Virus record (IMG/VR): IMGVR_UViG_3300001796_000002
DNA length: 64,000 nucleotides
DNA from: a virus
Reading direction: 5' to 3' (one strand)
The notes under the pieces were generated by a model. It saw only the letters and a list, made by a program, of their open reading frames with translations, was not told the origin of the DNA and did not search any database. The position numbers were made by a program, and so were the translations under genes. The first letter of the stretch is position 1; the number at the start of each line of letters is the position of its first letter. This document shows positions 1,720 through 20,705 of this stretch, in pieces.

Positions 1720-4700
1720 ATGAAAAGAATTTTGTTGATCCTAACCATGGCTATCAACGCATTTTTTTGCGTTATGGTCCATGGACAAACTGTACCTACT
1801 GAGCAACCGCAACGTGTACAGCATCCATACTACCAGTATGATGGATTTATTGAAGCAAAAAAAGGGATTTTGTTACCACGTAGGATAGCAAACTTTACAC
1901 CTAAATCACCGGTGCTTATTTATGATACGGTGTCGGGAAAAGTGTCTGTTTACTTTGGTGGGTGGAAGTCATTCCAGAATGTGGCATATACATCGGACTA
2001 CAACGATCTTATCAACCGTCCTGATCTTACTCAGTATGTTCCTACGAGTAGAACAATCAACGGTTATTCACTAACAAGCAATATCACCATAAACAAAGTG
2101 GATATTGGCTTAGGTAATGTTCAGAATGTTGATGTAACAAATGCAGGTAACATTACATCAGGCACTTTGTCCGATGCTAGGCTATCAGCCAATGTTACAT
2201 TACAAGGGAATACATTCAACGGTGCAAATCAGTTGTTACAATTGGATGCCGGTGGTAAGGTCGCTTACGCTAACTTACCGGCTTCACTGATGATCTATAA
2301 GGGTGTTTGGGATGCTTCAACAAATACACCAACGCTTGCAGATGGATCAGGAGTGAATGGATGGGTGTATCGTGTGCATCCGGGGGGTACTGTAAATTTT
2401 GGTTCCGGTAACATCACATTTTTATCAGGGGACTATGTTATTTATAATGGATCAGTTTGGCAGAAAAGTGCCGGTGGTGATGCTGTAACATCTGTCAATG
2501 GTCAACAAGGTGTAGTTGTGTTAACTACTGCAAATATTGCGGAAGGTGGAACAAACTACTACTATACAAACACACGGGTACAAACATTTGGTGATACTAG
2601 GTATAGTCTGCTCAATCATGAACACGTCTATTCTGATATTGCTAATCTCAGCAGTTACACGGGTTTTGATGTTAGATACAAACCTATCAGTTATGTTCCT
2701 GCATGGTCTGAAATCACAGGTAAGCCATCATTTGCGACAGTAGCAATAAGTGGATCTTATACTGATTTAAGCGGAACGCCCACACTTGGTTCATTATCTG
2801 CACTCAGTAGTATTGGCAACACATATATCACAGATGTAGCCTGGTCAAAAGTAACCGGTGCTCCATCTTTTTTAACTACTGAAAATGATCCTGTTTATAC
2901 TGCATCATCATGGTATAGCACTACTAATAATGCAAGCAACTGGAATACAGCTTATGCATGGGGCAACTATGCGAATCGTACACTTACAATCAATGGCACA
3001 ACCTATGATCTTTCAACCAACAGATCGTGGTCTGTTGGAACTGTAACAGGAACAGGTACTTCTGGTAATATACCTCTTTGGAATAATGCTAGTGATATTG
3101 GAAATAGTGTAATGGTACAAAGTGGTGGGGCTATCTATAATTACGGAAGATTTCATGGACATACTGGAAATACTGGAACATCATATAGTAATATGCAGAT
3201 AGAAGCATATAGCTCATCAGGCGCTACTGGTGTAGCAGGTTATTCGTTTCATATTGGAGGCTTTACTGCACAATCTTTGTATCTAACAGCAAGTGGAAAT
3301 GTAACTTTAAGCACTGGTTTAAATATACAAGGTGCTGCATCTATCTCTGGTTCAACTTCAATATCTGGTCCTGCAAATATTACTGGAACTATACATGCTA
3401 ATCAGGCGGGTGCAAATATTCGTCTTTACTCGGATGGCACAACAGCAAACGATGGTTTTGTGGGGGTTTCTGGTAGCAATATATACTTAACAAATTGGAA
3501 TGGAACAAGGGGGGTTACTATTGGAGCTGATAACGCAGGTTTTACTCATTCTGTAACAGCTGCAAACTTAGTAAACTCAAAAGGCTTTAGCGCATTAAAT
3601 AAATCATCAAGTTCAGCAAATGATGTTGTTACAGTTTATGCTCCAACAGGTGCAAGTTATTCTGATGATGGTAGTACGGGCGCAATTAAAATAAGACTTC
3701 CATTTAAGGCAGCGAACCCTATGTGGACAATGAAAGTCAGAATTTACAACTATTCTACTCACCAAACTTCTGAATATCTTTTAGGAAACTATTCTTATTC
3801 TGATGGCGGTTATAATTATTCCGCTTCATTTTCTGGTGGTTCTAATGCCTCTCCACTAACTGTAAGATTTGGTAATGATGGAACGTATGATTGCGTATGG
3901 ATTGGTGAAACAAATACTGTTTGGACATATCCAGTAATTAGTGTTGTTGATTACACTGCTGGATTTAGATCAGCTGGTGTATTTCAAGCTAAAGATTGGA
4001 ATATATCCATAGTAACATCTTTTGGCACTGTGGCAGTTGCCACAAGTCCAGCCATTCGATTCTCAGATGTATATGCTTCATCGTTTAATGGTTCTGCATC
4101 AGGTTTAACAGGTACAGCTAGTAGTTTGACTGCTGGTAATAGTAACGGGTTAGGAGGATACTCTGTTAACTTAACTTCAAACGGAACAACTATTTCAAAC
4201 ACATTAATAGGTTTTGAAAGCGGTGTTATAAAACCATTTGCTTCTGGAGCAGTACAATCATTCTTAGGTCTTGGTTCTGCTGCATATACTGCAAGTTCTG
4301 CATATGAAGTACCTCTATCATTTTCAACTGGACTTAACAGAAGTGGCAACACTATCACAAATACGGGTGTAACTTCTTTAACTGGAACATCGAACCAAAT
4401 TGCGGTATCAGCTGCTACAGGATCAGTTACAGTAAGTCTTACCAACAATGTTGTAATACCAGGCACAATCACATCATCTGCTAGTTATGAAAGTTCAGAC
4501 CGTAGGTTAAAACGAGCATTATCCGGAACAAGGTTAATTGGTCAAATTGAATCGCTCCAGGCTCGGTTATATGTAAAGGATGGAAGGGATGAGTACGGAT
4601 ATTACGCTCAGGATGCACTGAAAATTATCCCTACAGCCGTAAAGCAGAGAGCAGATGGCTATTATGATCTGTCCTACACTCAGGTGTTCGTTGTAAAAAT

Positions 4701-4764
4701 TGCATCACTTGAAAAACGTGTAGCGGAACTGGAAACATTACTTAAAAAAATCTACGGAAAATGA
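1720..4764 (+). CDS. Fibre/spike (receptor-binding) protein with N-terminal signal peptide and C-terminal peptidase S74-type intramolecular chaperone
   Basis: 1014 aa, G/S/T/N-rich. Fibre repeats WSEITGKPSF/WSKVTGAPSF and YNDLINRP/YTDLSGTP. C-terminal SDRRLK...GYYAQD...LSY...LEKRVAELE. Confidence 0.85.
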   Translation: MKRILLILTMAINAFFCVMVHGQTVPTEQPQRVQHPYYQYDGFIEAKKGILLPRRIANFTPKSPVLIYDTVSGKVSVYFGGWKSFQNVAYTSDYNDLINRPDLTQYVPTSRTINGYSLTSNITINKVDIGLGNVQNVDVTNAGNITSGTLSDARLSANVTLQGNTFNGANQLLQLDAGGKVAYANLPASLMIYKGVWDASTNTPTLADGSGVNGWVYRVHPGGTVNFGSGNITFLSGDYVIYNGSVWQKSAGGDAVTSVNGQQGVVVLTTANIAEGGTNYYYTNTRVQTFGDTRYSLLNHEHVYSDIANLSSYTGFDVRYKPISYVPAWSEITGKPSFATVAISGSYTDLSGTPTLGSLSALSSIGNTYITDVAWSKVTGAPSFLTTENDPVYTASSWYSTTNNASNWNTAYAWGNYANRTLTINGTTYDLSTNRSWSVGTVTGTGTSGNIPLWNNASDIGNSVMVQSGGAIYNYGRFHGHTGNTGTSYSNMQIEAYSSSGATGVAGYSFHIGGFTAQSLYLTASGNVTLSTGLNIQGAASISGSTSISGPANITGTIHANQAGANIRLYSDGTTANDGFVGVSGSNIYLTNWNGTRGVTIGADNAGFTHSVTAANLVNSKGFSALNKSSSSANDVVTVYAPTGASYSDDGSTGAIKIRLPFKAANPMWTMKVRIYNYSTHQTSEYLLGNYSYSDGGYNYSASFSGGSNASPLTVRFGNDGTYDCVWIGETNTVWTYPVISVVDYTAGFRSAGVFQAKDWNISIVTSFGTVAVATSPAIRFSDVYASSFNGSASGLTGTASSLTAGNSNGLGGYSVNLTSNGTTISNTLIGFESGVIKPFASGAVQSFLGLGSAAYTASSAYEVPLSFSTGLNRSGNTITNTGVTSLTGTSNQIAVSAATGSVTVSLTNNVVIPGTITSSASYESSDRRLKRALSGTRLIGQIESLQARLYVKDGRDEYGYYAQDALKIIPTAVKQRADGYYDLSYTQVFVVKIASLEKRVAELETLLKKIYGK

Positions 4765-5435
4765 AAAAGCTAATCACGATCTGTGCGCTGATCCTGATCA
4801 CTGCACTATGTTCATTCACCACTCACTTTTTCTCCTGGGCATCACTTGCAAGCAATCAACATATTTCGCTGAATAACTTGAAGGATGCAGTAGACAATGG
4901 CGTATTCAACTTAAAAAATGCGATACCTGCCGGCACGAAGCTGATTACAAAAAATGATGCAGTGTACTACGTGTACCTGAATGAATCCTATTCCCCATAT
5001 GCAGGTAAAGCAAGCAATCAGCATGTAACAAAATCTGATCTGCAAGCAAATACAACTTATACACTTCATGTCTACGGTGTACCTGGTGTTGGTTGTCAAG
5101 ATGCTGTATTATGGCTAGTGGCTAACACTACCGTTCCATGCGATGCATCATTACAGTTTGATTGGTGTGCAGATAATGGTTCAACAGGTACACATACACT
5201 TACGATCCCATCCGGACAAACATCTGTAAGCCTTAACGTGAATACCGGTGATTATGGCGGTACCGGTTGCGTTGGTACGGATGTTCGCATCAAACCCAAC
5301 AGTTTATCATTTAGCAATACCTGTAGTCCCGATCCACACACTTGGCGTGTTACATCGGATACATGGGATAATGGATGTAACTATTCGCTACCGGCAAGTA
5401 CACAAGTGATCTGTGTAAAAGGTTGCCCTATTTAA
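4761..5435 (+). CDS. Secreted fibre-associated protein with Cys-rich C-terminal domain
   Basis: Signal-like MKKLITICALILITALCSF; duplicated ASNQH motif; 8 Cys in the C-terminal half; ATGA overlap with the spike stop. Confidence 0.7.
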   Translation: MKKLITICALILITALCSFTTHFFSWASLASNQHISLNNLKDAVDNGVFNLKNAIPAGTKLITKNDAVYYVYLNESYSPYAGKASNQHVTKSDLQANTTYTLHVYGVPGVGCQDAVLWLVANTTVPCDASLQFDWCADNGSTGTHTLTIPSGQTSVSLNVNTGDYGGTGCVGTDVRIKPNSLSFSNTCSPDPHTWRVTSDTWDNGCNYSLPASTQVICVKGCPI

Positions 5436-5459
5436 TGTAAATTTTAAAACCATCATAAC

Positions 5460-5843
5460 ATGAAAAGAACAATTTTATTGACAGCATTAGCAAGCGTTTC
5501 ACTGGCCACAATCGCACAAAAAGTAGAGCCTGTAAAATCTGCACCAGCAACGGCTGTACAGGCTGCAAAAACCAACACAACAGATACTTTGGTGATCGAG
5601 AAAGTGAAGTTTATCAAAATCGGTGAAAAGGTATTTTCAGTTGCAGACCTGGGCAATCCTGGCAACGTTGCACTGATTGTACCCATCGAGTGGATCGCAG
5701 AAAATTATGAGTACCTGGATAATTCCAGTGGTGGCTATTCAAAGAAGCAATTAGAGCAGCTACAGAAGCCATTGGCACCATGGTACCGGTATTATGTTGA
5801 CTGGCTACAGCAGCAAAGACAACAAGCGAAAAAGCAGGAGTGA
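5460..5843 (+). CDS. Secreted hypothetical protein
   Basis: Signal-like MKRTILLTALASVSLATIAQ; last gene before a terminator. Confidence 0.7.
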   Translation: MKRTILLTALASVSLATIAQKVEPVKSAPATAVQAAKTNTTDTLVIEKVKFIKIGEKVFSVADLGNPGNVALIVPIEWIAENYEYLDNSSGGYSKKQLEQLQKPLAPWYRYYVDWLQQQRQQAKKQE

Positions 5844-6504: not shown

Positions 6505-7575
6505 CTATATCACTGGAAAATTATTGATCAATTGTACACAATCTTCCACCCCTAAACTTTTTAAATATTCATCGAAGACTTTTAAGTCACTATGCCCTTT
6601 CTGCAACTGTAGCTGTTTATGTGGTATGCCACTCATAGCGCTTTCCCTGATACCGGTGTGAACCCATGAATAAAATCCATACCGATTTGAAATATTGAGT
6701 TGGTCTAATATTTTACGATGCCGCTTTGTAAGGTTATTCATAGATAACATTTGTGAACCAGGTTGACCGTGTTTTGAAAATATAAACCATTCAGATGGAT
6801 AGCCCCTGAACTTATTTATAATGTCTTGCATCGGTACCGGTATTGCTTTACGCAAAACATCATCATCCTTTGTTATGCGCACACCGGCTTCAACTCTCAT
6901 TTCATCGAACAGAATATTTTCGATCCTTAACTGTCTGATCTCAGCAGGTCGGAAAAAAAGATAATACTGAAACAATATCGCATCCCATAACTGCGGGTCT
7001 TGTTCGATTACTTTTTCTTTGATGGTTGCAACCTGATTAGGGTGGAAGGGTAGTAGACTCTGAGATTTTAATTTCTTCACCTTTATTCCCTCGAACGGAT
7101 TGTGTGGGTATCTCAGTTGTTTGACAAGGTCTTTAAACAAACAGCCTAAAAATATTTTTGCTTTCAGAATATAATTATTGTGATAATCCTGCTCATACAT
7201 GAATCGAATGTACTCAGCCGGTGATATATCCGGTTTTTTTGCCTTTGCCGGTCTATACCATTCAGAGAACTTTTTCAAGTGAGAAAAATAGCATTGGTAC
7301 GATTTTTTGGCTAGGGATGGTCGTTTGTATTCCAATGCTGCATCGAGATTACCAATCAGGTCGGTTCGTTGCCTGATTTCTACTCTCTGTGGGTCTGTTA
7401 ACTTTTTAATCAATTTGCGAGCTTCCCGCATCCGTTCGGCAACGGTAGAAAGTTTGTTCAACTTTCCATAAACTTTTTGTGGTCTTCCGGCTTTGTCCTG
7501 GTATTGAACAAACCAAGTTTTAGAAATGTCCCGACTTAGCGGATACAGTTTTGGAAAAAAATTTTTTTTATCCAT
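6505..7575 (-). CDS. int: Tyrosine recombinase / phage integrase
   Basis: FFRPAEI (Arg I), YSWVHTG box, GHS and C-terminal Tyr (DEYL); N-terminal arm-binding-like KTWFVQY; likely start ATG 7575. Confidence 0.9.
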   Translation of the reverse strand: MDKKNFFPKLYPLSRDISKTWFVQYQDKAGRPQKVYGKLNKLSTVAERMREARKLIKKLTDPQRVEIRQRTDLIGNLDAALEYKRPSLAKKSYQCYFSHLKKFSEWYRPAKAKKPDISPAEYIRFMYEQDYHNNYILKAKIFLGCLFKDLVKQLRYPHNPFEGIKVKKLKSQSLLPFHPNQVATIKEKVIEQDPQLWDAILFQYYLFFRPAEIRQLRIENILFDEMRVEAGVRITKDDDVLRKAIPVPMQDIINKFRGYPSEWFIFSKHGQPGSQMLSMNNLTKRHRKILDQLNISNRYGFYSWVHTGIRESAMSGIPHKQLQLQKGHSDLKVFDEYLKSLGVEDCVQLINNFPVI

Positions 7576-7672
7576 GATGAAAATTTCTGTGTGAAGCCCC
7601 TGCGAGCTGTACAGATAATCACGGACGGTTAACAATTAGTCTATGCCGTTCTATTCATAGACTTTCGGAAAT

Positions 7673-7709: not shown

Positions 7710-7725
7710 GTGGAGTCGAGGGGAG
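7710..7725 (-). other. Putative attP core resembling the 3' end of tmRNA (ssrA)
   Basis: Minus strand CT-CCCCT-CGACTCC-A-C fits T-loop end, T-stem 3' strand, acceptor 3' strand with U70, and discriminator A. It lies between int and the repressor. Confidence 0.65.
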
Positions 7726-7790: not shown

Positions 7791-8102
7791 CTACTTACTT
7801 TTTTCTGTTTTTAACTGCTGTTTCAGTTTCAATATTTCCTCCATTCGTTTGTGATCCTTTTCCAGTAATTCATAATACTTTTCTTTAAAGCCATCATCAG
7901 TGGAGTTTGTACCGGTACACTGAAAGAAGTCACATATTGTGCAACCCAATACAACAGCACATTTTTCTAATTTCTTGACGGACATAGTATCGTTCTTAAT
8001 TGCGGCAAAAAATCCCGTCTCAGTCATATCTATCAATACAGCTAATTTTTTGAGTGAAACCCTTTTGGAAGCTGCTATTTTCTTGAGTAAAGAATAATCC
8101 AT
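7791..8102 (-). CDS. XRE-family HTH repressor (CI-like, no peptidase domain)
   Basis: SLKKLAVLIDMTETGFFAAIKNDTMSVKKLEKCAVVLGCTICDFF plus a C-terminal coiled coil; divergent from the early operon. Confidence 0.8.
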   Translation of the reverse strand: MDYSLLKKIAASKRVSLKKLAVLIDMTETGFFAAIKNDTMSVKKLEKCAVVLGCTICDFFQCTGTNSTDDGFKEKYYELLEKDHKRMEEILKLKQQLKTEKSK

Positions 8103-8112
8103 AAAAAATAAT

Positions 8113-8146
8113 TGGTGCAATATTTTGTAGTCTGGTGCAAAATATT
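8113..8146. promoter_or_regulatory. Putative operator sites in the divergent repressor/early promoter region
   Basis: tggtgcaatatt (8113) and tggtgcaaaatatt (8133); 8113-8131 is the exact reverse complement of 13593-13611. Confidence 0.6.
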
Positions 8147-9272: not shown

Positions 9273-9670
9273 TGCACTATCAAGCCGAAAAATATAATTC
9301 TGAATTGCTTAACCTGCAATCGCTTATTAACGATTGGCGAAGTGATGCAGATGCCTATGAATTAAAAATAGAGCAAGCTGCTAAAGAAGGTAAGCCCGTT
9401 GCAGGTATGGAAACCTATCACACTAAGCAGCTACAGAAAATTAATCGAATAGAATCATTTGCAAGTGCAGCACATACATTCATATCCGCAATGCAGTCAC
9501 ATATTAACCTGATGAAGGTTAACAGCCTGGAACATCAATATAATACCAAATTATCAACCAACCGTACCCGAATATGTGACCTTCCGGACGGTCCAAATAC
9601 CATGCACCTAGAGGTCATGGAAACCCTCACGGAAATTCTTTATAGAATGGACAAAAAAACTATCTACTAA
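9272..9670 (+). CDS. Hypothetical coiled-coil protein
   Basis: TAATG coupling on both sides; upstream of the helicase. Confidence 0.65.
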   Translation: MHYQAEKYNSELLNLQSLINDWRSDADAYELKIEQAAKEGKPVAGMETYHTKQLQKINRIESFASAAHTFISAMQSHINLMKVNSLEHQYNTKLSTNRTRICDLPDGPNTMHLEVMETLTEILYRMDKKTIY

Positions 9671-10908
9671 TGGCTAAAGAAAAAGTTGAAATAAAAACTC
9701 CCTTCAAACAAATGATGGATTGGCTTTTTAGTCAATATGACTTCAAGCGTGATCTATTAAAAAATGCTGTTCATTTCAAGCCCACCGGTGATAAAGAATT
9801 TAAAGAGTTAACTGATGATGATATCAATACGATATCCATCACAATGGAACTGAAAGGATTGAAAAAATTTGCTGAGAAAGACATTTGCCGCGCTATATAT
9901 AGCAGCTTTAATCCTGGTAACTATGATCCGCTAAAAACATACTTCAATCGAATTTCAAAGAAAAATCCCAAAGGTGCCATTGATAAGCTAGCCGCTACGA
10001 TTAAGACCACAAATACCGAATTGTGGAATAAGTACCTAAAAAAATGGTTAGTCGCATGTGTTGCTAATTACATGGAAATAAAGGGGTGTCAAAATCACAC
10101 TTGCCTTGTCCTTACCGGTGGACAGGGTAAGGGTAAAACAACCTGGTTAAATGGTATATGCCCTCCTGAACTAAACCCTGCATACATCTACACCGGTCGC
10201 CTCGATCTGAGCAAGCAATCAGATACAAATTTCAAACTAGCGGACTACTGGTTTATCAATATTGAGGAACAAATGAAAAACCTTAATAGGCAAGATGCGA
10301 ACGCTGTAAAGGCACTTATAACCCTTTCTGATATCAAAGGTCGTAAGCCTTACGGTCGTATAGAAGTTTCAGCCAGAAGACTTGCAAATTTTATGGGTAG
10401 TACCAATGATGATGATTTTATTACTGATGAAACCGGAAGCCGCCGTTTTCTTCCTTTCAAAGTAACAGATATCAACTTACCTGGCTTTAAAAAAATTGAT
10501 ATAGATGAAGTATGGTCGGAAGCCTTTCGATTATACGAAAGTGGTTTTGTTTACTGGATCACTCAGGATGATCAGATTGAATTGGAAGCAAATAACAAGG
10601 AATACATTAACCATACTCAGGAACATGAATATGTGAATATTTATTGCTCAGTTCCAAAGGATGAAACTGATGCAACTCATGTTGTACCTGCAAGTGTGCT
10701 GCGTGATTTTATACAATTTGAAACAACCAATAAGAACCTACGTGATAGAAACATTGGTGTAGCACTTTCACAGATAGGATTTAAACAGGTTACACACCGT
10801 TTCCACTGGATCACCTACCCAATGAAAGCATGGTTAATAAAACTCAATGAACCTACAGGCAATGCGAGCCTGAATAAATATTTAATTGAACCACAACAAA
10901 AATCCTAA
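9670..10908 (+). CDS. VapE/VirE-family (SF3-like) replicative helicase/NTPase
   Basis: LVLTGGQGKGKTTW (Walker A), INIEE, KPYGR...NFMGSTND...DETGSRRF family motifs. Confidence 0.9.
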   Translation: MAKEKVEIKTPFKQMMDWLFSQYDFKRDLLKNAVHFKPTGDKEFKELTDDDINTISITMELKGLKKFAEKDICRAIYSSFNPGNYDPLKTYFNRISKKNPKGAIDKLAATIKTTNTELWNKYLKKWLVACVANYMEIKGCQNHTCLVLTGGQGKGKTTWLNGICPPELNPAYIYTGRLDLSKQSDTNFKLADYWFINIEEQMKNLNRQDANAVKALITLSDIKGRKPYGRIEVSARRLANFMGSTNDDDFITDETGSRRFLPFKVTDINLPGFKKIDIDEVWSEAFRLYESGFVYWITQDDQIELEANNKEYINHTQEHEYVNIYCSVPKDETDATHVVPASVLRDFIQFETTNKNLRDRNIGVALSQIGFKQVTHRFHWITYPMKAWLIKLNEPTGNASLNKYLIEPQQKS

Positions 10909-11750: not shown

Positions 11751-12065
11751 ATGCCAATCAACTACAAGGAATATCATCCAAAGTGGACACTTATCAGAAG
11801 ATTAATTCTGCAACGTGCAGACAATTGTTGTGAAGGTTCTCCAAAATTTCATTTGTGCAGAGCTGCGAATAATCAACCGCATCCTGAAACCGGAAGTAAA
11901 GTGATACTGACTATTGCACACTTGAATCATGATAAGAATGATAACAGGTTTTCTAACCTCAAAGCATTGTGCCAACGATGCCATTTACATCATGATATAG
12001 GGAATCACATATTCAATCGAAAGTATGGTCGGGATACCAAGAGATTAAACGGAAAATTATTTTAA
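11751..12065 (+). CDS. HNH endonuclease
   Basis: CCE...C; LTIAHLNHDKNDNRFSNLKALCQRCHLHHD. Confidence 0.85.
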   Translation: MPINYKEYHPKWTLIRRLILQRADNCCEGSPKFHLCRAANNQPHPETGSKVILTIAHLNHDKNDNRFSNLKALCQRCHLHHDIGNHIFNRKYGRDTKRLNGKLF

Positions 12066-12780
12066 TGAAGAAACCCTATAAAACATATAATGGAGGGAAA
12101 AACGGATCAGGAGTATATCAGCAAATAATTAACCAGATTCCACAGCACAAGATATTCATAAGTGGCTTTTGCGGCAATTGTGGTGTCCTGGCTCATAAGC
12201 TGCCGGCTTCCATGGCCAACATCGCAATCGATCTTGATAATGCAGTAACTCAAAAATGGTCGATAATTCCAGGAATATCTTCCATTAATGCAGATTGTAT
12301 CAGCTTTATTTCAAATTGCCTACAATTCATACAAATTGCTTCCCCCAACCTAATTGATGAAATTGTTATTTACCTCGATCCTCCTTACCTACAGGAAACC
12401 AGAAAAGGAAATAAAGCCTTATATAAACATGAAATGAATGATATCGCATCTCACAAAATATGCTGCTCGATATTATGTGTTGGCCTGTTAAAGTCATACT
12501 AAGCCATTATCCTTGTGATTTATACAATACCTTACTTAAGGATTGGAGAATTCATGATTTTGAAGCTATGACCAGAAACGGAAAAAGAACAGAAAGGCTT
12601 TACATGAACTATCCTGAACCTGATCAGCTACATGACTACAGGTACTTAGGAAAAGATTTTCGTGAAAGAGAACTATACAAAAAGATGCGTTCTAATGTGG
12701 TTAATAAGTTCAAGCGAATGAATATCCTGGAAAGAAACATGATTCTCGAATCATTAAAAGAGAGCTGGCATCATAAGTAA
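12065..12780 (+). pseudogene. Dam-like N6-adenine DNA methyltransferase split by a frameshift near 12455-12462
   Basis: YNGGK, motif-I-like SGFCG, DPPY and YKHEM in ORF 12065..12502. The conserved continuation (LLD...VILSHY...LYNTLLKDW...TERLYMNY) is in the -1 frame ORF 12460..12780. Confidence 0.75.
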
Positions 12781-12809
12781 GCATGATACAGGCTTACAGC
12801 AAAAATAAA

Positions 12810-12833
12810 TGCGATACAGCCGGCTGTATCGCA
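12810..12833. repeat. Perfect 24-bp palindrome between convergent genes
   Basis: tgcgatacagcc|ggctgtatcgca. Confidence 0.9.
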
Positions 12834-12889
12834 AAATAATATGTTAGCTGCAGACACCACATAAATAAATGATGGCACCAGGTTGTACA

Positions 12890-13646: not shown

Positions 13647-14099
13647 ATGGACAATCCCACTGAATCAAATATCACTACCGGTAGTGCTTCAGACCTTCAA
13701 CCTGAAAGCCAAAACCCTGAACCTACAGTTCAGGATTCGATTATAACCACTGAACCTGAAAGTGGTGGATTTGCAAAGCCTGATCCTGAAAAAAATGGGC
13801 AAAGCATTGTTGTCACAAAACCCTCAGTTGTTCCACCGGTTGAAGTAAAACCAATTTCAAAAGTTGAGCGAACTGGAAGTAAAAGATTAACCATCACGGT
13901 TAACTTTTCACTGGATGAAGTTCCTTACATCAATGAAATTATTCAGGCTCGTATTGACAGTAAACTATCAAAAAATGCAAGCCACTTCATCAGGCAATGT
14001 GTAGACTTTGCAATTCACCATAAGGCAGGTACAAAAATCGCTATACCGGAAATTACACCTGTTGAAATCAAAGACGGATTTTATCACCCCTCAAAATAA
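13647..14099 (+). CDS. Protein with low-complexity N-terminus and ribbon-helix-helix-like C-terminus
   Basis: KRLTITVNFSLDEVPYINEII...NASHFIRQCVDFAI. Confidence 0.55.
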   Translation: MDNPTESNITTGSASDLQPESQNPEPTVQDSIITTEPESGGFAKPDPEKNGQSIVVTKPSVVPPVEVKPISKVERTGSKRLTITVNFSLDEVPYINEIIQARIDSKLSKNASHFIRQCVDFAIHHKAGTKIAIPEITPVEIKDGFYHPSK

Positions 14100-14102
14100 A
14101 TT

Positions 14103-14411
14103 ATGAAACTGGAAGTACACAGCTTGCCGAATGGATCGTGTTCAGTGAACATGACACCGGAAGAAATGAAAACACTGCTAGAAAATCATCAGGTCATGTT
14201 GAAAGACTTGAAGATGATAAAGGAAAATGTAATGAAGGTGTCTGTTAATCTTGACCTTGTTGATGAAAACGGTGTATTCAGGGAAAAAATATCTATGATC
14301 AAACTTATGCCTAAAATAATGGGCTATATCACGAACACAGATAAGGCATTACTGGATTTCGGTTTTCTTCGTGAATTACTGCCATTGCTTCAACGATATC
14401 AAAACCTTTAA
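14103..14411 (+). CDS. Hypothetical protein
   Basis: Tight operon spacing. Confidence 0.6.
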   Translation: MKLEVHSLPNGSCSVNMTPEEMKTLLENHQVMLKDLKMIKENVMKVSVNLDLVDENGVFREKISMIKLMPKIMGYITNTDKALLDFGFLRELLPLLQRYQNL

Positions 14412-14413
14412 AC

Positions 14414-15016
14414 ATGAGTGAGCCAAGAGTAAGCGATAGCATTAGTAAACTTCTTATTGACGTTACAGTGCCAACAGAAGAAAAACAACCTCAGGTCATT
14501 GTTGCACCTGAAACTATTGTTGTGCCACCTGAAAATGCAAATACTGCATCCAATTCATCACCTGAAACTAATACACTTGTTCAGCAGCCTCAAACTGTGA
14601 AACCTCCTGTTACAGATGAAATGGTTGAAAACGGCGCGGAACTGGTTATAGGTATGTTTGATTTCAGTCAAAACAACTTGTTTAAGTTTTTTGTCAATAG
14701 GAAAAAGAACAATCGTATGGAAGCCTTGTTGGGTGAAAACCACAAGGATAAGTTGGAAACATTGATCAGTAATGTTGAAAGTGGAAAGAAAGCAGAGGAA
14801 TTTAAACCGGAAGATTTGAGTGCTTTGCGATTGGAAAAAGATGTACAGACATTGCTGAAAGACCTGCCTTTGAGTGATCAGGAAAAAGAGTCATTAAAAA
14901 AACCACTGATGGCTATCATGAAAGCCAAAGGCGGTGTTATTCCGCCGGAATATTTACTCATACTTGCCATACTTCAAATAGCCGGTGGACGCACTGCTGA
15001 AACTGTTATGTTATGA
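14414..15016 (+). CDS. Putative membrane-associated protein upstream of the packaging ATPase
   Basis: C-terminal hydrophobic PPEYLLILAILQIAGG; ATGA overlap with the ATPase. Confidence 0.65.
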   Translation: MSEPRVSDSISKLLIDVTVPTEEKQPQVIVAPETIVVPPENANTASNSSPETNTLVQQPQTVKPPVTDEMVENGAELVIGMFDFSQNNLFKFFVNRKKNNRMEALLGENHKDKLETLISNVESGKKAEEFKPEDLSALRLEKDVQTLLKDLPLSDQEKESLKKPLMAIMKAKGGVIPPEYLLILAILQIAGGRTAETVML

Positions 15017-15567
15017 CCAAAAGACTGAATAAATGTTTTCTGTTTATCGGTCGACGTGGTACCGGTAAAACAACTCTTGCGCGAAAGATGGCAAAGGCAA
15101 TGGGTAGAAAGCTGATCATCATTGATACGGATGATCATCCGTCTTATTTAGATATTCCTGTGATCAGCCTTGAAAGACTAAAAACATTCACCGGTGAAGC
15201 GTGCCGCGTGATCGAAAGTGATATTGATCATGTATTCGTAATCTTGAATCAGTACCAAAGTAATGCAGTGGTGATCTGTGAAGATGCCAGTAAGTATATT
15301 ACAGCCAACATCTCAAAAGCTGTTCGATCATTTTTGATCGACATGAGAAAAAGAAATTTTGATGTGATTATCATGTTTCACTTTTTATCTGATGTGCCGC
15401 CATACATCTGCAAGCAATATGATCAGATGGTTCTATTCAAGACTGGTGATAATATCCAGGTAACACAAAACAAGTTTGCAAACTGGCATACCATCGTTAC
15501 TAAGTTGAAGCGTATCCTTAAACACAAAGATTTTAACTACTGTGAGACTATTGCAATTGATGAGTGA
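15013..15567 (+). CDS. FtsK/HerA/A32-like genome-packaging ATPase
   Basis: Stand-alone 184 aa with GRRGTGKTT (Walker A), VVICEDA (Walker B) and DMRKRNFDVIIMFH (Arg-finger/sensor strand); no nuclease domain. Confidence 0.8.
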   Translation: MTKRLNKCFLFIGRRGTGKTTLARKMAKAMGRKLIIIDTDDHPSYLDIPVISLERLKTFTGEACRVIESDIDHVFVILNQYQSNAVVICEDASKYITANISKAVRSFLIDMRKRNFDVIIMFHFLSDVPPYICKQYDQMVLFKTGDNIQVTQNKFANWHTIVTKLKRILKHKDFNYCETIAIDE

Positions 15568-15763
15568 TCGACAGCACATACAACCAAATACACTTGGTGC
15601 CATAGCTAAACGCTATGGAATGGACACTCGTACACTGAAAGGAATGATAAGGTTACATCCTGAATTATTACTAAAAGTTCAACCTTATTTTGACGCAAAA
15701 AAAAATCTGTTACCACCGATCATTGTTGAACTGATTTATACAACACTTGGAACACCTGAGTAG
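15560..15763 (+). CDS. DUF4248-like small HTH protein
   Basis: IAKRYGMDTRTL...PPIIVELIYTTLGTP resembles the DUF4248 pattern (LA..Y...TL...V..I...LGEP). Confidence 0.6.
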   Translation: MSDRQHIQPNTLGAIAKRYGMDTRTLKGMIRLHPELLLKVQPYFDAKKNLLPPIIVELIYTTLGTPE

Positions 15764-15800
15764 GTGTTTTAATTTTTCGCGTTACCAATCCCCCAATCAT

Positions 15801-15829
15801 GCAGCCCTGTTTAAGGGCTGCTTTTTTTT
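15801..15829 (+). terminator. Rho-independent terminator
   Basis: gcagccct-gttta-agggctgc plus T8. Confidence 0.8.
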
Positions 15830-15957
15830 GCATTGTTATGTACCTGTAAACATTCTGAAACATAATACAGCAAAGGGATACATAATGATGAGCATGAATG
15901 AAACATAACAATCATTTTCACACTGCATAATCATTCAATCACTAAAAATTTTTAACC

Positions 15958-16128
15958 ATGTTTGTTTCAAACTCCACCAAAGGTTCAGGGTTCATGAATG
16001 CCGGGATTCTTTTGCTGTTGGTTTTTGTAGCTGTACTGATCGCTCTGATGATCGTTAAGCTGAAAAAAGACCCGAAAGATGCAGAGGCGCAACGCTTCAC
16101 CCTGGGATTGAAAAAGAAATCAGCATAA
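15958..16128 (+). CDS. Small single-pass membrane protein (56 aa, absent from the ORF track)
   Basis: MFVSNSTKGSGFMNAGILLLLVFVAVLIALMIVKLKKDPK...; TM followed by a basic cluster. Confidence 0.7.
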   Translation: MFVSNSTKGSGFMNAGILLLLVFVAVLIALMIVKLKKDPKDAEAQRFTLGLKKKSA

Positions 16129-16176
16129 GCCCATCCCATCAGTAAACCTCATTAACCTAACAAAAAAATTTTCGAC

Positions 16177-16827
16177 ATGGAACCAAGACCATACACAGGG
16201 AAAGGTGATGCCTTTCTCGATTTCAAAGGAAACGGTGTAGACTTTGGCAGTGAGTTGAACCTCGACAAAGTTTTCGCGTTCACCATTACCAACGCATCAG
16301 CAAACCCACAGGTTGTATTGCTGAACCCATCTTATTCACCCTCTGTTGTTGCCAGGGTAATTAAAACAGGTGCTATTCCTTATGCGGGCGGCGCAACTGA
16401 TTTGACTGCTTTGGGATCACCTACAAGTATTGAAGAATTTTTGGCGTTCATCAAAGCAAACCCTACAGTGGTAGTAAAAACAATGATTAAGAGTAATAAC
16501 TCTGATCAGTTGGCGAAAGCATTGATTTTCGCAAAAAAATCTCCTTTCAAACTGCCTGATAGTGATCGTATCAATCTGTCATCATTCCTGAGTGAGTTCG
16601 CGTCCAATGATAAATTGGCGACTGTAAAGCGTGAATATCAGTTGGATGATCAAACAGAACTTTCACTCGAGATTCCACCGGCTGTAGGTGCGGTTGCAAC
16701 TGTAACCACAATCACATTCTATTGCGGCGCATCTCTGAACACGGCAAATGCTTTGGCTCAGAAGAAAGCACAGGCAATGTTGAATCCGGAAGTACAGACA
16801 ACAAAAAGTGTAATCGCTGGACGATAG
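16177..16827 (+). CDS. Candidate major capsid protein (jelly-roll type by inference)
   Basis: Soluble, beta-rich 216 aa (VFAFTITN, LSLEIPP, TTITFY), downstream of the ATPase, with its own A-rich leader and a strong terminator directly after. Confidence 0.55.
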   Translation: MEPRPYTGKGDAFLDFKGNGVDFGSELNLDKVFAFTITNASANPQVVLLNPSYSPSVVARVIKTGAIPYAGGATDLTALGSPTSIEEFLAFIKANPTVVVKTMIKSNNSDQLAKALIFAKKSPFKLPDSDRINLSSFLSEFASNDKLATVKREYQLDDQTELSLEIPPAVGAVATVTTITFYCGASLNTANALAQKKAQAMLNPEVQTTKSVIAGR

Positions 16828-16845
16828 TCCAAACAATTCATAATT

Positions 16846-16883
16846 AAAAGGGCAATGCCATCAGTGCCATTGCCCTTTTTTTT
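16846..16883 (+). terminator. Rho-independent terminator after the candidate capsid gene
   Basis: aaaagggcaatg...cattgccctttt plus T-run. Confidence 0.8.
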
Positions 16884-16895
16884 AAAACTGATCCA

Positions 16896-17087
16896 ATGGC
16901 CAACGAAGCTGTAGAGGTTGGCATAGAAAAGATGATGTTTTTTTTCGGCACTGTCATCACTTTTCTGTTATCTATCATCACTTTTTTTCTCATTCGATTC
17001 ATCAATAACAGTGATGCTCAAATGAAGGAACTAAGAGACATGACATCCGACCACGAAACAAGAATTACAGTGCTAGAAAAAGAATAA
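16896..17087 (+). CDS. Small TM plus coiled-coil protein (holin-like/XhlA-like)
   Basis: One TM then ...HETRITVLEKE. Confidence 0.55.
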   Translation: MANEAVEVGIEKMMFFFGTVITFLLSIITFFLIRFINNSDAQMKELRDMTSDHETRITVLEKE

Positions 17088-17113
17088 TTATTCACTCCAA
17101 AAAATCAAAAACG

Positions 17114-17788
17114 ATGAAACGTTTTTTCAGAAAAATATTAGCCTTTTTGGCTTCATTGTTTACCAACGTAAATGAATGGATTTACGATCATGTTCAGCCA
17201 TCCATTGAAATGGTTCAACGTCTCAAAAAAGCAGTTGAAAGTCCGTACGCAAACCTGATCACAACACTCATTCCAGGCAACTGGGATAATATGTTACAGG
17301 AAGCTGCAATTAAGCTGTTGACAAAAGCTGTAGACAATCTGCGTATTACAGAAGACATCTATTTTGATGGTGACTGGACTAGCAAACTTGCAAAGCTCAC
17401 AGAGTATCTACGTAATTCATCTAAACCGATGAGAGGGGCAATATACCACCAACTAGCAGTTGAACTTTCCAAACAAAGTGCATTCGCAAAAAAGTTACAG
17501 GAAGCTGAAGAAAAAGGCATTCCTGTTGAAGAAGTAAAGTTGGATGTAAAGGGACATAGCATTAGTCTGCTCACGCAAATGCAATACAGCAAGTTGAAGG
17601 AAAAAGTTGAGGCGGCAGACCTTCCCGAAGTGGATCCATTTTTAGAGGCAAAAATCAACAATGGTGTTGATCAGTACAACAAGACTTATGAGCGATACAA
17701 GCAGTTGTATCCGGATCATGATCCAACACAGGTTCACACCCTTGAAGAATTAAACCAACTGATTCAGGACGCGGAAGCGAAAGCCTGA
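17114..17788 (+). CDS. Hypothetical helical protein with amphipathic N-terminus
   Basis: MKRFFRKILAFLASLF; late operon. Confidence 0.65.
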   Translation: MKRFFRKILAFLASLFTNVNEWIYDHVQPSIEMVQRLKKAVESPYANLITTLIPGNWDNMLQEAAIKLLTKAVDNLRITEDIYFDGDWTSKLAKLTEYLRNSSKPMRGAIYHQLAVELSKQSAFAKKLQEAEEKGIPVEEVKLDVKGHSISLLTQMQYSKLKEKVEAADLPEVDPFLEAKINNGVDQYNKTYERYKQLYPDHDPTQVHTLEELNQLIQDAEAKA

Positions 17789-17825
17789 TCCTATCAGTTG
17801 AATTGTCTCACACAAAACAGTTTTT

Positions 17826-18284
17826 ATGTTACCAGTAGAATTACAACTTGAGCGCACTCAGGACGTATACGGCAACGATAACGGTGACGGCTATTATCTT
17901 GGCGAAAACGGAGACGGTACAGGATCACCTTATTATACTATTGATTTTTCAGGTTACGGCAATGAAGGAACAGTTGTAAAAACTGTGAATACAGAAGCGC
18001 AGAGTACACCTGAAATTGTTCAGGCTACCGATTCCGAAAAAAAGAAATGGTATGATGTACTTGAACAGATTGGTGGAACCGCCGCGGGTTTGATCACTGC
18101 GATTAAATCTCCTGGAATGCCAGGTACTACAAGCCCCAACATCAATGGTTCGGTAGACATCACCGGTGATAACAAGTACACACCTTCTGTTGATGATAAG
18201 AAGAAAAATAATACAGTATGGGTCATCCTTGTGATCATTCTGATTGCTGTATTGCTATACTTCGCATTCAAAAAAGATAAATAA
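17826..18284 (+). CDS. Putative virion membrane protein with C-terminal TM anchor
   Basis: Acidic/Gly-rich N-terminus; ends KKKNNTVWVILVIILIAVLLYFAFKKDK. Confidence 0.7.
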   Translation: MLPVELQLERTQDVYGNDNGDGYYLGENGDGTGSPYYTIDFSGYGNEGTVVKTVNTEAQSTPEIVQATDSEKKKWYDVLEQIGGTAAGLITAIKSPGMPGTTSPNINGSVDITGDNKYTPSVDDKKKNNTVWVILVIILIAVLLYFAFKKDK

Positions 18285-18291
18285 CGCAGTC

Positions 18292-18747
18292 ATGGCGAAT
18301 ATTCTTAAAGATACGCTTACACCAGGCAAGGGAAACAAAACGGTGAAAACCATCATCGTGATAGCTATTGTAATTGTGGTAATAGTCATTATCTACCAGA
18401 TTTACAAAGCTATCACAGATAGTGGTAAGGCTTTGGGTGATATCATCGGAATGGAAATCATTGAACAAAAAACCGGTATTGTTCCTGCTCGTCAACGTGT
18501 ATGTAAAGAAGTTGCAGAAAACTGCGAGAGTGCTATCACCCGTCTTTGGATTTTCGGTAACAAGTTATGGGTGAATGATGATGAAATCGTAGACCAGTTG
18601 AACAAATTATTGACACCGGCTGAAGCTGCATTGACATCAGTTTTCTTCAAAGAACAATCAGGAGAAACTTTGAAGTCCATCGTAGAGGGTGGCTATTTCG
18701 TAGAAAAAAACCGTAAACGAATTACCCTTCGTCAATACCTGGCATAA
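18292..18747 (+). CDS. Putative virion membrane protein with N-terminal TM
   Basis: KTIIVIAIVIVVIVIIYQIYK; start ATG 18292. Confidence 0.7.
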   Translation: MANILKDTLTPGKGNKTVKTIIVIAIVIVVIVIIYQIYKAITDSGKALGDIIGMEIIEQKTGIVPARQRVCKEVAENCESAITRLWIFGNKLWVNDDEIVDQLNKLLTPAEAALTSVFFKEQSGETLKSIVEGGYFVEKNRKRITLRQYLA

Positions 18748-18748
18748 T

Positions 18749-19243
18749 ATGAGTCAAAAGAAACTGATCATCATCCTTGTAGTTGTAATCGTGATAGCTG
18801 TGATTACATGGTTTGTGTATAAGCATTACCAAAAACAGTTGCATAAGAAATTTCCGATTCGCAAAGGTAGTAAAGGGAAAGGTGTACAGTTCGTTCAGCT
18901 AACATTTGACGCACCATTAACCGGTGTATGGGATGATACGTTTAACGACCACGTGAAAAATCAAACCGGTAACGATTCACTTGAGTGGTCAAAAAAGGAT
19001 CTGTTTGATTACTGGTTTAAAACAGCACTAACATCTGAAACATTTCCACTGGTGCCGGGTCAATCTAGTGGATGGATTATAGCAGTACAGGTGATGCTTG
19101 GAGCAAATAAGTTTACTGATTACTACGATCAGGATACGGTAACTCTGGTAAAAAAAGCCATCGGAAAGGATACAATATCCCTGATGGATTATCTCACAAT
19201 CGGCGAAGATGTTTTTGGCATTGATGCAGCCGATTACAAATAA
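18749..19243 (+). CDS. Membrane protein with two degenerate peptidoglycan-binding-like repeats
   Basis: N-terminal TM; PIRKGSKGKGVQFVQ..TGVWDDTF and PLVPGQSSGWIIAVQ..TDYYDQDT resemble PG_binding_1. Confidence 0.6.
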   Translation: MSQKKLIIILVVVIVIAVITWFVYKHYQKQLHKKFPIRKGSKGKGVQFVQLTFDAPLTGVWDDTFNDHVKNQTGNDSLEWSKKDLFDYWFKTALTSETFPLVPGQSSGWIIAVQVMLGANKFTDYYDQDTVTLVKKAIGKDTISLMDYLTIGEDVFGIDAADYK

Positions 19244-19248
19244 AAGTT

Positions 19249-19416
19249 ATGGCAACCTTTTTTGATCAATTATTTAATCAGGGTAAGTTACCCGATATCA
19301 ATGTTGAGGTTCAACTTGACAATGCAAGTGTTGTACGGCTTGGCGTTATGATCATGATTGTAATGCTGCTCACTATTCTGCTGTATGTGGTGATCCGCAA
19401 AAAGGCAGGTGTATAA
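19249..19416 (+). CDS. Small single-pass membrane protein (55 aa, absent from the ORF track)
   Basis: ...VRLGVMIMIVMLLTILLYVVIRKKAGV. Confidence 0.7.
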   Translation: MATFFDQLFNQGKLPDINVEVQLDNASVVRLGVMIMIVMLLTILLYVVIRKKAGV

Positions 19417-19441
19417 ATCTATTCACCTAAAAATTTATTTC

Positions 19442-20071
19442 ATGGCTATTTTTGCATTACCTACAGCCGCAGCTTTAACAAACGCAGCCACAAAAGCCGG
19501 TACGGATATATTCAATTCCATCTTATCAAAAAATGGAGTATCTCCATCTTTTTTTTCTACGTTCAAATTGTTGTCTTTTTTAGATAACAGTACATCACAG
19601 TGGAAAAGTAGACTTGCGAAACTTCGTGAGTTTACACCTGAAGGACGCATTTTATTCTACATTGATAAGATGCAGAATAACCAACCGTTTCATGGTTCCT
19701 GTGTTCAATATGCAGAACTGTTCGGCACTTCGTATGACGGTAAATCCGGTTTGGATGATCGAGGTAAGGTATCGGTTGAACTATTAGAAGTGTTTAACCT
19801 ACTTGCAGACGAAAAATATTTTCGTGGCAAAGAAACTGCTACGGATGGTCATACTTATCAGCGTGCTAGAATTTTGAATCGCTTGGACATTGCTCCTGAC
19901 TATGCTGCTGTTGTGCAAAAGAGACAAGCAGCATCGAGGTCTAACCTGGAAATTGCCAAAATAACCCCGGAAGGTGTTCCCGATAGCAATAGCAACATGA
20001 TCTATATTCTTGTCGCCCTGGTTGTTATAGGTATCATCGCTTTTATTGTTTCAAAATCAAAAAAGGCATAA
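19442..20071 (+). CDS. Putative virion membrane protein with C-terminal TM anchor
   Basis: ATG 19442 preferred over GTG 19409; C-terminal TM plus KK. Confidence 0.75.
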   Translation: MAIFALPTAAALTNAATKAGTDIFNSILSKNGVSPSFFSTFKLLSFLDNSTSQWKSRLAKLREFTPEGRILFYIDKMQNNQPFHGSCVQYAELFGTSYDGKSGLDDRGKVSVELLEVFNLLADEKYFRGKETATDGHTYQRARILNRLDIAPDYAAVVQKRQAASRSNLEIAKITPEGVPDSNSNMIYILVALVVIGIIAFIVSKSKKA

Positions 20072-20072
20072 G

Positions 20073-20705
20073 ATGAATTTGATTAAAGGACTTGCAACGC
20101 TTACTGATCTGCTGCGCAATGAATACATTAGTTTGTTCAACAGAGCGCAAGTAAAGCCTACGAGTATTTCAAAGGTAGAAACGGCTTACAGACAACTTGT
20201 ATCCAATAAAGCACGCTATGAAGCTGTTGCCAATGCTTTTAAACTGCCTGGTGTACCCTGGTATCTTATTGGTTGTATTCATATGCGTGAATCTTCATTT
20301 CGTTTTACCGGTCATCTTCACAATGGTGATCCGCTTACAGCGAAGACAAAAAATGTTCCATCAGGTAGACCATTGAACAGTCCTAAAGCAGGTATTGGTA
20401 AGCCATATACCTGGGAAGAATCTGCAATTGATGCTATTAGTTTAAAGTTATCCGGATCACCTTCATGGTACAATTATAAAAATGATAAAAGCACCGCAAG
20501 CCTGTTGAATAAATTAGAGGCTTTCAACGGTGCCGGTTATCGTAATAAAAATATTCCTTCCCCTTATCTGTGGGCAGATAGTACCATTCAAGTGCCTGGA
20601 AAGTTTGTAGCAGATGGACAATTTAATCCGTCTGTAGTTGATCAGCAGTTAGGAGCCGGTACGCTACTTAAATACTTCCTAGAACAGGAAGCAAAAAAAA
20701 AATAG
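20073..20705 (+). CDS. Lysozyme-family hydrolase (copy 2)
   Basis: Copy of 613..1245. Confidence 0.8.
   Translation: MNLIKGLATLTDLLRNEYISLFNRAQVKPTSISKVETAYRQLVSNKARYEAVANAFKLPGVPWYLIGCIHMRESSFRFTGHLHNGDPLTAKTKNVPSGRPLNSPKAGIGKPYTWEESAIDAISLKLSGSPSWYNYKNDKSTASLLNKLEAFNGAGYRNKNIPSPYLWADSTIQVPGKFVADGQFNPSVVDQQLGAGTLLKYFLEQEAKKK

Follow-up and report, generated by a model that had tools for sequence, protein, structure and literature searches.

Which kind of particle is encoded by a late gene cluster in which a stand-alone ATPase is followed by one short beta-rich protein and a run of membrane proteins? The question is raised by positions 14414-19460 of the virus record IMGVR_UViG_3300001796_000002 (IMG/VR), of which we analysed a stretch of 64 kb (in the following, the window) with computational methods throughout. 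A preceding sequence-only reading had taken this region for the morphogenesis module of a possibly undescribed, tail-less temperate virus with an unusually short capsid protein. All features described there are found where they had been placed, and the interpretation is supported by a jelly-roll fold predicted for the 216-aa protein encoded at 16177-16827 (+ strand), by the grouping of the ATPase with the B204/P23-77 type, and by the lack of a match to any described family in INPHARED, PHROGs, Pfam and the literature searched. That is, we think it probable, with room for doubt, that the window represents a Bacteroidota virus which is temperate and tail-less, probably contains a membrane and combines one single jelly-roll (SJR) major capsid protein (MCP) with a B204/P23-77-type packaging ATPase, and that this virus is part of a large undescribed lineage.

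The window comprises 3.29 copies of a 19,460 bp unit without any mismatch and thus corresponds to a closed circular record. Each unit holds three gene blocks, i.e., a block with a leftward integrase and a repressor, a rightward early block and a long rightward late operon. The latter extends from 13647 over the record origin to about 5843. Positions 14414-19460 are therefore the central part of the module, while its start had been set too far downstream and its continuation over the origin had been missed. Scans of the late genes with Pfam, PHROGs and NCBIfam gave no match to portal, terminase, HK97 capsid or tail-tube/sheath proteins, in accordance with the earlier observation, and only a 1014-aa protein matches fibre families.

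Fold and predicted assembly of the 216-aa protein

Folds were predicted for two proteins only. The model of the 216-aa protein (c3, the candidate MCP) consists of one beta-sandwich domain (residues 31-185), and structural alignments treat the protein as a single domain, i.e., a single jelly-roll is predicted. Given both observations and the lack of tandem duplications in its family, we rejected a double jelly-roll (DJR) reading. None of the 162 family representatives shows a tandem duplication; longer members have loop insertions or N-terminal extensions, and the longest representative is one jelly-roll with a loop insertion. Judged by size and composition, no other late protein is a DJR candidate. 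What had been called an unusually short capsid protein is thus better described as one single jelly-roll where known relatives have a double one or two single ones.

With regard to known capsid proteins, the Foldseek list of the 216-aa protein places SPV1 no higher than rank 33, and none of VP16, VP17, SH1 VP7 and VP4 is among its top 50 structural neighbours. The AlphaFold DB clusters contribute four uncharacterised full-length structural relatives. When the capsid profile was compared with VP16, VP17, SH1 VP4/VP7, PM2 P2 and PRD1 P3, the hhalign probability stayed below 1%, and searches of Pfam, PHROGs, NCBIfam and, with both profiles, PDB sequences gave no match for the protein.

A complex prediction with three copies resulted in an interaction prediction score from aligned errors (ipSAE) of 0.87, compared to 0.00 for the best control, at a predicted local distance difference test (pLDDT) value of 88; respective runs share at least 97% of their contacts. 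The ipSAE mark is reached by 20/30 proteins solved as one-chain pairs and by 1/23 proteins solved as single chains, a calibration that refers to two-copy and not to three-copy predictions. In the three-copy model, one copy uses surface A only, one surface B only and the middle copy both. This pattern corresponds to subunits joined head to tail in an open arc, which is what a segment of a ring with more than three subunits should look like. Both the N-terminal arm and the C-terminal tail of the protein sit in the predicted interface.

The gene, noticed before for its isolation by a leader and a terminator of its own, is set apart by two intrinsic terminators. The first (15801-15831, +) has an 8-bp GC-rich stem followed by T8 and ends the transcription unit of the ATPase; the second (16847-16882, +) is located 3' of the capsid gene and combines a 12-bp hairpin with T8 (z -3.57; 0/200 shuffles fold as well). 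Such strong terminators of its own are as expected for the gene of the most abundant product. Within the 414-nt spacer between the first terminator region and the capsid gene, a 56-aa single-pass membrane protein is encoded (15958-16128, +), which belongs to the same transcription unit and shows 74% and 63% identity in the related loci L002 and L001, respectively. The capsid gene comes after those for the ATPase and a tiny membrane protein and before the run of membrane proteins, which is where the MCP gene is found in PM2, PRD1 and P23-77.

In 23 of the 162 family representatives (14%), an N-terminal hydrophobic segment is fused to the jelly-roll. It takes the form "MKK plus hydrophobic", followed by a short Ala/Gly/Pro-rich hydrophobic motif (e.g., in P0206, P0185, P0139 and L006:11515-12372). 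Given the separate 56-aa open reading frame (ORF) at the same position, this looks, on the level of the sequences, like a fusion that links two proteins functionally. The homologues fused to a transmembrane (TM) segment suggest that the 216-aa protein may work at a membrane surface.

We infer that the 216-aa protein is the MCP and that the virus has no other capsid protein. The same virus architecture could also be combined with a different role, namely that of a penton or minor vertex protein, in which case the MCP would be an unrecognised divergent jelly-roll or have another fold. Vertex proteins are indeed among the structural neighbours (a 124-residue PR772 chain, PRD1 P5 and the STIV C381 turret), the open head-to-tail arc is equally expected from a pentamer, and fold prediction covered just two proteins. 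The genomic context argues for the MCP, since the gene has its strong terminators and its conserved position, and the 216-aa protein is the sole beta-rich cytoplasmic protein of the invariant core of the lineage. Furthermore, the other late proteins above 200 aa are helical-looking, TM-bearing or exported, and none of them is shell-like. On balance, we consider a vertex role unlikely.

The packaging ATPase and its neighbours

The ATPase gene (15013-15567, +) encodes a stand-alone P-loop protein of 184 aa, as had been described, which is an A32/B204-type genome-packaging ATPase. The sequence alone matched references only at Walker A, and its class was settled by structure and hhalign comparisons. 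Here, P23-77 ORF13 scores best (95.0%, E 3.5e-8, 166 columns), followed by IN93 ORF11 (93.9%), SH1 ORF17 (48.5%) and PRD1 P9 (35%); for PM2 P9, the match is confined to the Walker A motif. Sequence identity with the STIV/STIV2 NTPase B204 is 17%. The ATPase is thus placed among packaging ATPases of the B204/P23-77 type, and that of P23-77 is the nearest of the references tested. This grouping led us to reject an identity as Zot or conjugation ATPase, the families that would have spoken against a virus of the proposed kind. The protein also matches phrog_2666, which carries the PHROG label "terminase large subunit"; the same label is found on packaging ATPases of tail-less phages.

We examined nine further loci. 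The 200-aa protein c0 (14414-15016, +), a candidate assembly factor, is encoded directly upstream of the ATPase in 10/10 loci, and its stop codon overlaps the ATPase start codon. It shows weak profile similarity to the PRD1 assembly protein P10 (62% probability, 68 columns) and a feature score of 0.95 to large unnamed clusters of the ESM Atlas, of which more than half of the classified members are viral. Look-ups of the 129-aa, 200-aa and 224-aa proteins in the ESM Atlas gave no usable fold assignment. The 73-aa protein c2 (15542-15763, +) is present in 10/10 loci and adjoins the ATPase in nine. It is helix-turn-helix (HTH)-like according to its alignment pattern and has no family match, and comparison with the same-position genes of the reference viruses gave no similarity. 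We regard c2 as a candidate DNA-binding factor for packaging or late regulation.

Distribution and gene content of related loci

A word-indexed search identified only 15 relatives of the jelly-roll protein; an exhaustive profile search resulted in at least 614 clusters at 50% identity, of which 415 have an E-value of 1e-10 or better. Among the matches listed, the clusters are mostly 200-340 aa long. None of the cluster members carries a name, and matches in PHROGs or the PDB are likewise absent. In INPHARED, neither tblastn nor megablast revealed a nucleotide or protein match to the virus, and one narrow pattern scan of IMG/VR gave no relatives, which supports their absence there only weakly.

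The complete loci are elements or prophages of 14-21 kb. They share an invariant core whose order is fixed: c0 with about 200 aa comes first, followed by the ATPase, the HTH-like c2 with about 60-75 aa and, last, the jelly-roll protein. The MCP profile identifies exactly one jelly-roll homologue per locus (9/9 loci), always alongside the ATPase. In addition, one remnant (L007:8513-9815) has kept c0, the ATPase and c2 but lacks the jelly-roll gene; it lies between upstream host genes and a YafQ-type toxin gene and is probably a decayed prophage.

Replication modules vary among the loci (VapE; Rep_1 with a single-stranded DNA-binding protein (SSB); DUF5906 primase-helicase), and such differences are usual within virus groups. 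In L009:3180-5279, a Rep_1 rolling-circle initiator and an SSB stand in place of VapE, with the morphogenesis core kept, and some members may conceivably package or replicate via single-stranded DNA (ssDNA). All named hosts are Bacteroidota, i.e., a Sediminibacterium metagenome-assembled genome (MAG), a Bacteroidales MAG and a locus beside a gene with a type IX secretion system (T9SS) signal.

Membrane proteins, fibre and remaining late genes

The run of TM proteins reported before comprises seven proteins with hydrophobic segments between 15958 and 20071, all encoded on the + strand. Beside the 56-aa protein, these are a 63-aa protein (16896-17087; TM residues 10-28), which is kept in L001 and L002, a 152-aa tail-anchored protein (17826-18284; TM residues 130-148), c9 (18244-18747; TM residues 36-54), c6 (18749-19243; 164 aa, N-terminal TM residues 6-24), c13 (19249-19416; 55 aa, TM residues 31-49) and a 220-aa protein with hydrophobic N- and C-terminal segments (19409-20071), whose gene spans the record origin. 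Both c9 and c6 are found in 6 loci. The ORF of c9 overlaps the previous gene and has 167 aa when started from TTG; since its homologues have 151 aa, translation probably begins at the ATG at 18292 instead (151 aa). Taken together with the TM-fused capsid homologues, the seven proteins are consistent with an internal membrane under the shell, and we infer that the virion holds a membrane.

The tail-anchored proteins of distant relatives (L003:11944-13011, L004:6270-7271, L006:12603-13298) carry an N-terminal HExxH motif (HEEGH/HEMGH) as in metalloproteases; the equivalent in the window (17826-18284) is without this motif. Within the run, c10 (17114-17788, +; 224 aa) is present in 5 loci and looks helical by eye, with no family match and no informative fold. 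The first two genes of the late operon, a 150-aa protein of cluster c8 (13647-14099, +) and the conserved 102-aa protein c7 (14103-14411, +), are each kept in 6 loci and have no match in Pfam, PHROGs or NCBIfam.

Beyond the record origin, a conserved 219-aa protein follows (586-1245, +; also in L001, L002 and L003). It has no Pfam, PHROG or NCBIfam match and an earlier reading as lysozyme was not confirmed; relatives have recognisable peptidoglycan hydrolases at this position. A 129-aa protein (1328-1717, +), whose gene precedes that of the fibre, is a candidate for a vertex or adaptor role; it has its N-terminal 57 aa in common with a 329-aa protein of L001 and shows weak structure matches in the Atlas. 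The fibre or spike itself (1720-4764, +; 1014 aa) has a signal-like N-terminus and matches PHROG tail/fibre families with 2.6e-35 and 1.2e-07. Sec-type signal peptides are seen on this protein and on those of 224 and 127 aa encoded directly after it (1720-5843 for all three), and we presume these signal-bearing "spikes" to be parts of the virion. Large fibre-like proteins with signal peptides are also encoded in L002, L003 and L008, but not in L001, L006 and L009, i.e., they are found in 4/7 complete late modules. The fibre region 1862-4387 is the main hypervariable segment in variants of 95-99% identity (runs X4, X6, X10), with contig breaks or divergence at 3038 and 4387.

Some features would also suit a vesicle-borne or pleomorphic integrative element (pleolipovirus- or plasmavirus-like), in which the jelly-roll serves as membrane-anchored matrix or surface protein and the fibre decorates the envelope, namely the large number of small membrane proteins, the signal peptides that the fibre shares with its two neighbours and the N-terminal membrane anchor in 14% of the jelly-roll family. 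The lack of relatives in the IMG/VR scan points in the same direction. Pleomorphic and vesicle-borne elements are not known to have a B204-type packaging ATPase, whereas the ATPase is invariant here and most closely resembles its counterparts in icosahedral viruses that contain a membrane. The synteny with PM2, PRD1 and P23-77 is likewise at odds with such an element, and signal-bearing fibres are not universal in the group. We therefore judge this explanation to be quite improbable.

Integration, lifestyle and occurrence

The first block encodes an HTH repressor (7791-8120) and the leftward tyrosine integrase (6505-7635, -; PF00589), the gene of which is found at the prophage end in L002. We identified the core of the phage attachment site (attP), GTGGAGTCGAGGGGA, at 7710-7724 (+), which is identical to the 3' end of the host gene for transfer-messenger RNA (tmRNA). 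In L002, where the tmRNA is found at 20200-20572, the two prophage junctions carry the same core, as does the tmRNA 3' end. A relative with an 80% identical capsid protein and an unchanged gene order is part of a 3.63 Mb contig, where an rseP-like host gene flanks it on one side and the tmRNA gene on the other.

Junction unitigs are also seen directly (run X1). In the probable source run, a 19,476 bp contig with 42.8x coverage maps round the whole circle, a 44-bp unitig runs exactly across attP (23x), and a further unitig (7.9x) leads from the phage flank via the core into the tmRNA. The excised and the integrated form are thus both present in one sample, with the excised circle being deeper in reads than the integrated junction. 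That is, the virus is temperate, as had been anticipated, and uses its tyrosine recombinase to integrate at the 3' end of the tmRNA gene of its host. The prophage form is rare and was found in 1/400 other sampled Bacteroidota species genomes.

The early block encodes a VapE-type primase-helicase (9670-10908), an HNH protein and a Dam-type methyltransferase. The latter (12065-12780) is split into two overlapping ORFs (145 and 106 aa), and L001 has one intact gene of 226 aa. In near-identical variants from air and soil runs, the methyltransferase region 12066-12888 is swapped for 259 other bases.

Near-identical DNA was found in 11 unrelated studies covering subsurface, sea water, air, soil, drinking water, biofilm and fresh water. 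The air and soil runs contain variants of 95-99% identity that are joined to host sequence at the core; most of their differences concern the fibre (about 1862-4387) and the methyltransferase region. The host may be a widespread water-system bacterium, with relatives of Sediminibacterium being plausible.

The data also bear on the possibility of a helper-dependent satellite or defective prophage, or of a non-viral integrative plasmid with an orphan ATPase. Such an element would be in line with the L007 remnant, which has no jelly-roll gene, and with the rarity of the prophage form. Given that a complete module of ATPase, jelly-roll, membrane proteins, lysis enzymes and fibre is kept over hundreds of diverged lineages, and that the excised circle exceeds the integrated junction in depth in the source sample, we attribute a very small probability to it.

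Comparison with known virus families

The module functions like those of tail-less icosahedral viruses with an internal membrane and is a member of none of the families tested. P23-77 and IN93 (Matshushitaviridae) share a bacterial host, a circular double-stranded DNA (dsDNA) genome of 17-19.6 kb, SJR capsid proteins and the order of ATPase, small ORFs, jelly-roll capsid gene(s), small membrane proteins and lysis genes; the 19.6 kb circular genome of IN93 also encodes an integrase. On the other hand, they have two adjacent SJR MCP genes (VP16 and VP17) where this lineage has one (9/9 loci), differ in host phylum, integration site and replication genes, and show no detectable capsid sequence similarity. 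Matshushitaviridae belong to Halopanivirales, formerly part of Helvetiavirae and now of the realm Singelaviria. The FtsK/HerA-type ATPase typical of this order is present in the window, but membership fails because there is one MCP gene instead of two, the neighbours of the jelly-roll gene encoding small TM or helical-looking proteins, and because there is no similarity to VP16/VP17 or VP7/VP4.

PM2 and PRD1 are likewise tail-less, have an FtsK/HerA-type ATPase and show the order of ATPase, tiny TM protein, MCP, membrane proteins, spike and lysis genes; for PM2, the circular genome is shared as well. They differ by their DJR MCP (269 aa in PM2, 395 aa in PRD1) and by weaker ATPase similarity. 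The A32/B204-like ATPase is common to the window and the prokaryotic families of Bamfordvirae (Corticoviridae, Tectiviridae, Turriviridae, Autolykiviridae), and an assignment to these DJR families fails because no DJR MCP is present. STIV and STIV2 (Turriviridae) differ in their archaeal host in addition to their DJR MCP. SPV1 (Portogloboviridae) has a circular dsDNA genome of about 20 kb and an internal membrane and, as here, an SJR MCP gene. It differs in its archaeal host and is without a packaging ATPase (PMC8812541), which is invariant in our lineage.

Finnlakeviridae (FLiP, phiCjT23) have an ssDNA genome, a rolling-circle Rep, a DJR MCP and no packaging ATPase, in contrast to the ATPase, the SJR candidate and the VapE-type replication of the window. 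The combination of a Zot-type ATPase with membrane domain and a small helical coat protein, which marks Inoviridae and other Zot-encoding filamentous phages, is not found, and fibre domains are the only parts shared with Caudoviricetes. Since the defining capsid genes (DJR or paired SJR MCPs) are absent, the MCP profile stays below 1% for all capsid proteins compared and INPHARED holds no match, it is hardly conceivable that we see a diverged member of Matshushitaviridae, Corticoviridae, Tectiviridae or Finnlakeviridae, even though the ATPase profile aligns with P23-77 and IN93 and the latter is a 19.6 kb circle with integrase.

For viruses with this ATPase type, only arrangements with one DJR or two SJR proteins are described in the literature searched (PMC8328091, PMC10848233, PMC5894146, PMC9502842). 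The "Charybdis" elements (bioRxiv 2025.08.03.668216) are unrelated, i.e., archaeal and of 4.3 kb, and nothing similar is described with Prophage Tracer (PMC8682789). The literature searched contains no description of the group; an earlier description elsewhere is possible.

Proposed assembly

For a membrane-containing virus with one SJR MCP, the reading that we prefer, we propose the following order of assembly. Small single-pass proteins would insert into the host cytoplasmic membrane, and the 216-aa protein would be made abundantly from its own terminator-bounded transcription unit. It would form ring-shaped capsomers on the cytoplasmic face of the membrane, which would then, perhaps with the aid of c0, shape the membrane so that an icosahedral shell with an internal vesicle results. 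Through one vertex, the 184-aa ATPase would pump the genome in, with the HTH-like c2 perhaps guiding it. Finally, the fibre would mediate adsorption, and peptidoglycan hydrolases would serve both entry and lysis.

Some caveats apply to this scheme. The Sec-type signals do not fit a simple cytoplasmic assembly, and no penton gene was identified. With two proteins folded, there may be a second capsid protein. The likeness of c0 to PRD1 P10 is only suggestive.

Evolutionary implications

The classified dsDNA viruses with vertical jelly-rolls and FtsK/HerA ATPases have either one DJR MCP or two SJR MCPs (PMC8328091, PMC10848233). How both relate has long been argued, with proposals ranging from a fusion of two SJRs via independent capture of cellular proteins to domain loss followed by duplication (PMC8812541, PMC8328091). 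On the way from a portoglobovirus-like ancestor to the two-MCP Halopanivirales, a stage with one SJR-MCP gene plus packaging ATPase was proposed without an example (PMC8812541). One SJR gene combined with a P23-77-like ATPase fits this intermediate stage, or a secondary reduction from it.

More specifically, the loci may belong to a large unrecognised lineage of bacterial viruses whose icosahedral, membrane-lined capsid is made of homo-oligomeric (probably hexameric) capsomers of one vertical SJR protein and is filled by an FtsK/HerA ATPase, a tentative reading to which we give slightly less than even chances. If true, at least a new family or order would be merited, possibly basal in Singelaviria. 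A family of at least 614 clusters without a match in PHROGs, Pfam and INPHARED also means that standard virus detection may miss it. It spans samples from soil, fresh, drinking and sea water, air and the subsurface, and existing lysogens provide a route to bench work. A diverse bacterial lineage with one SJR protein would, if confirmed, supply the missing configuration and make the question of origin testable.

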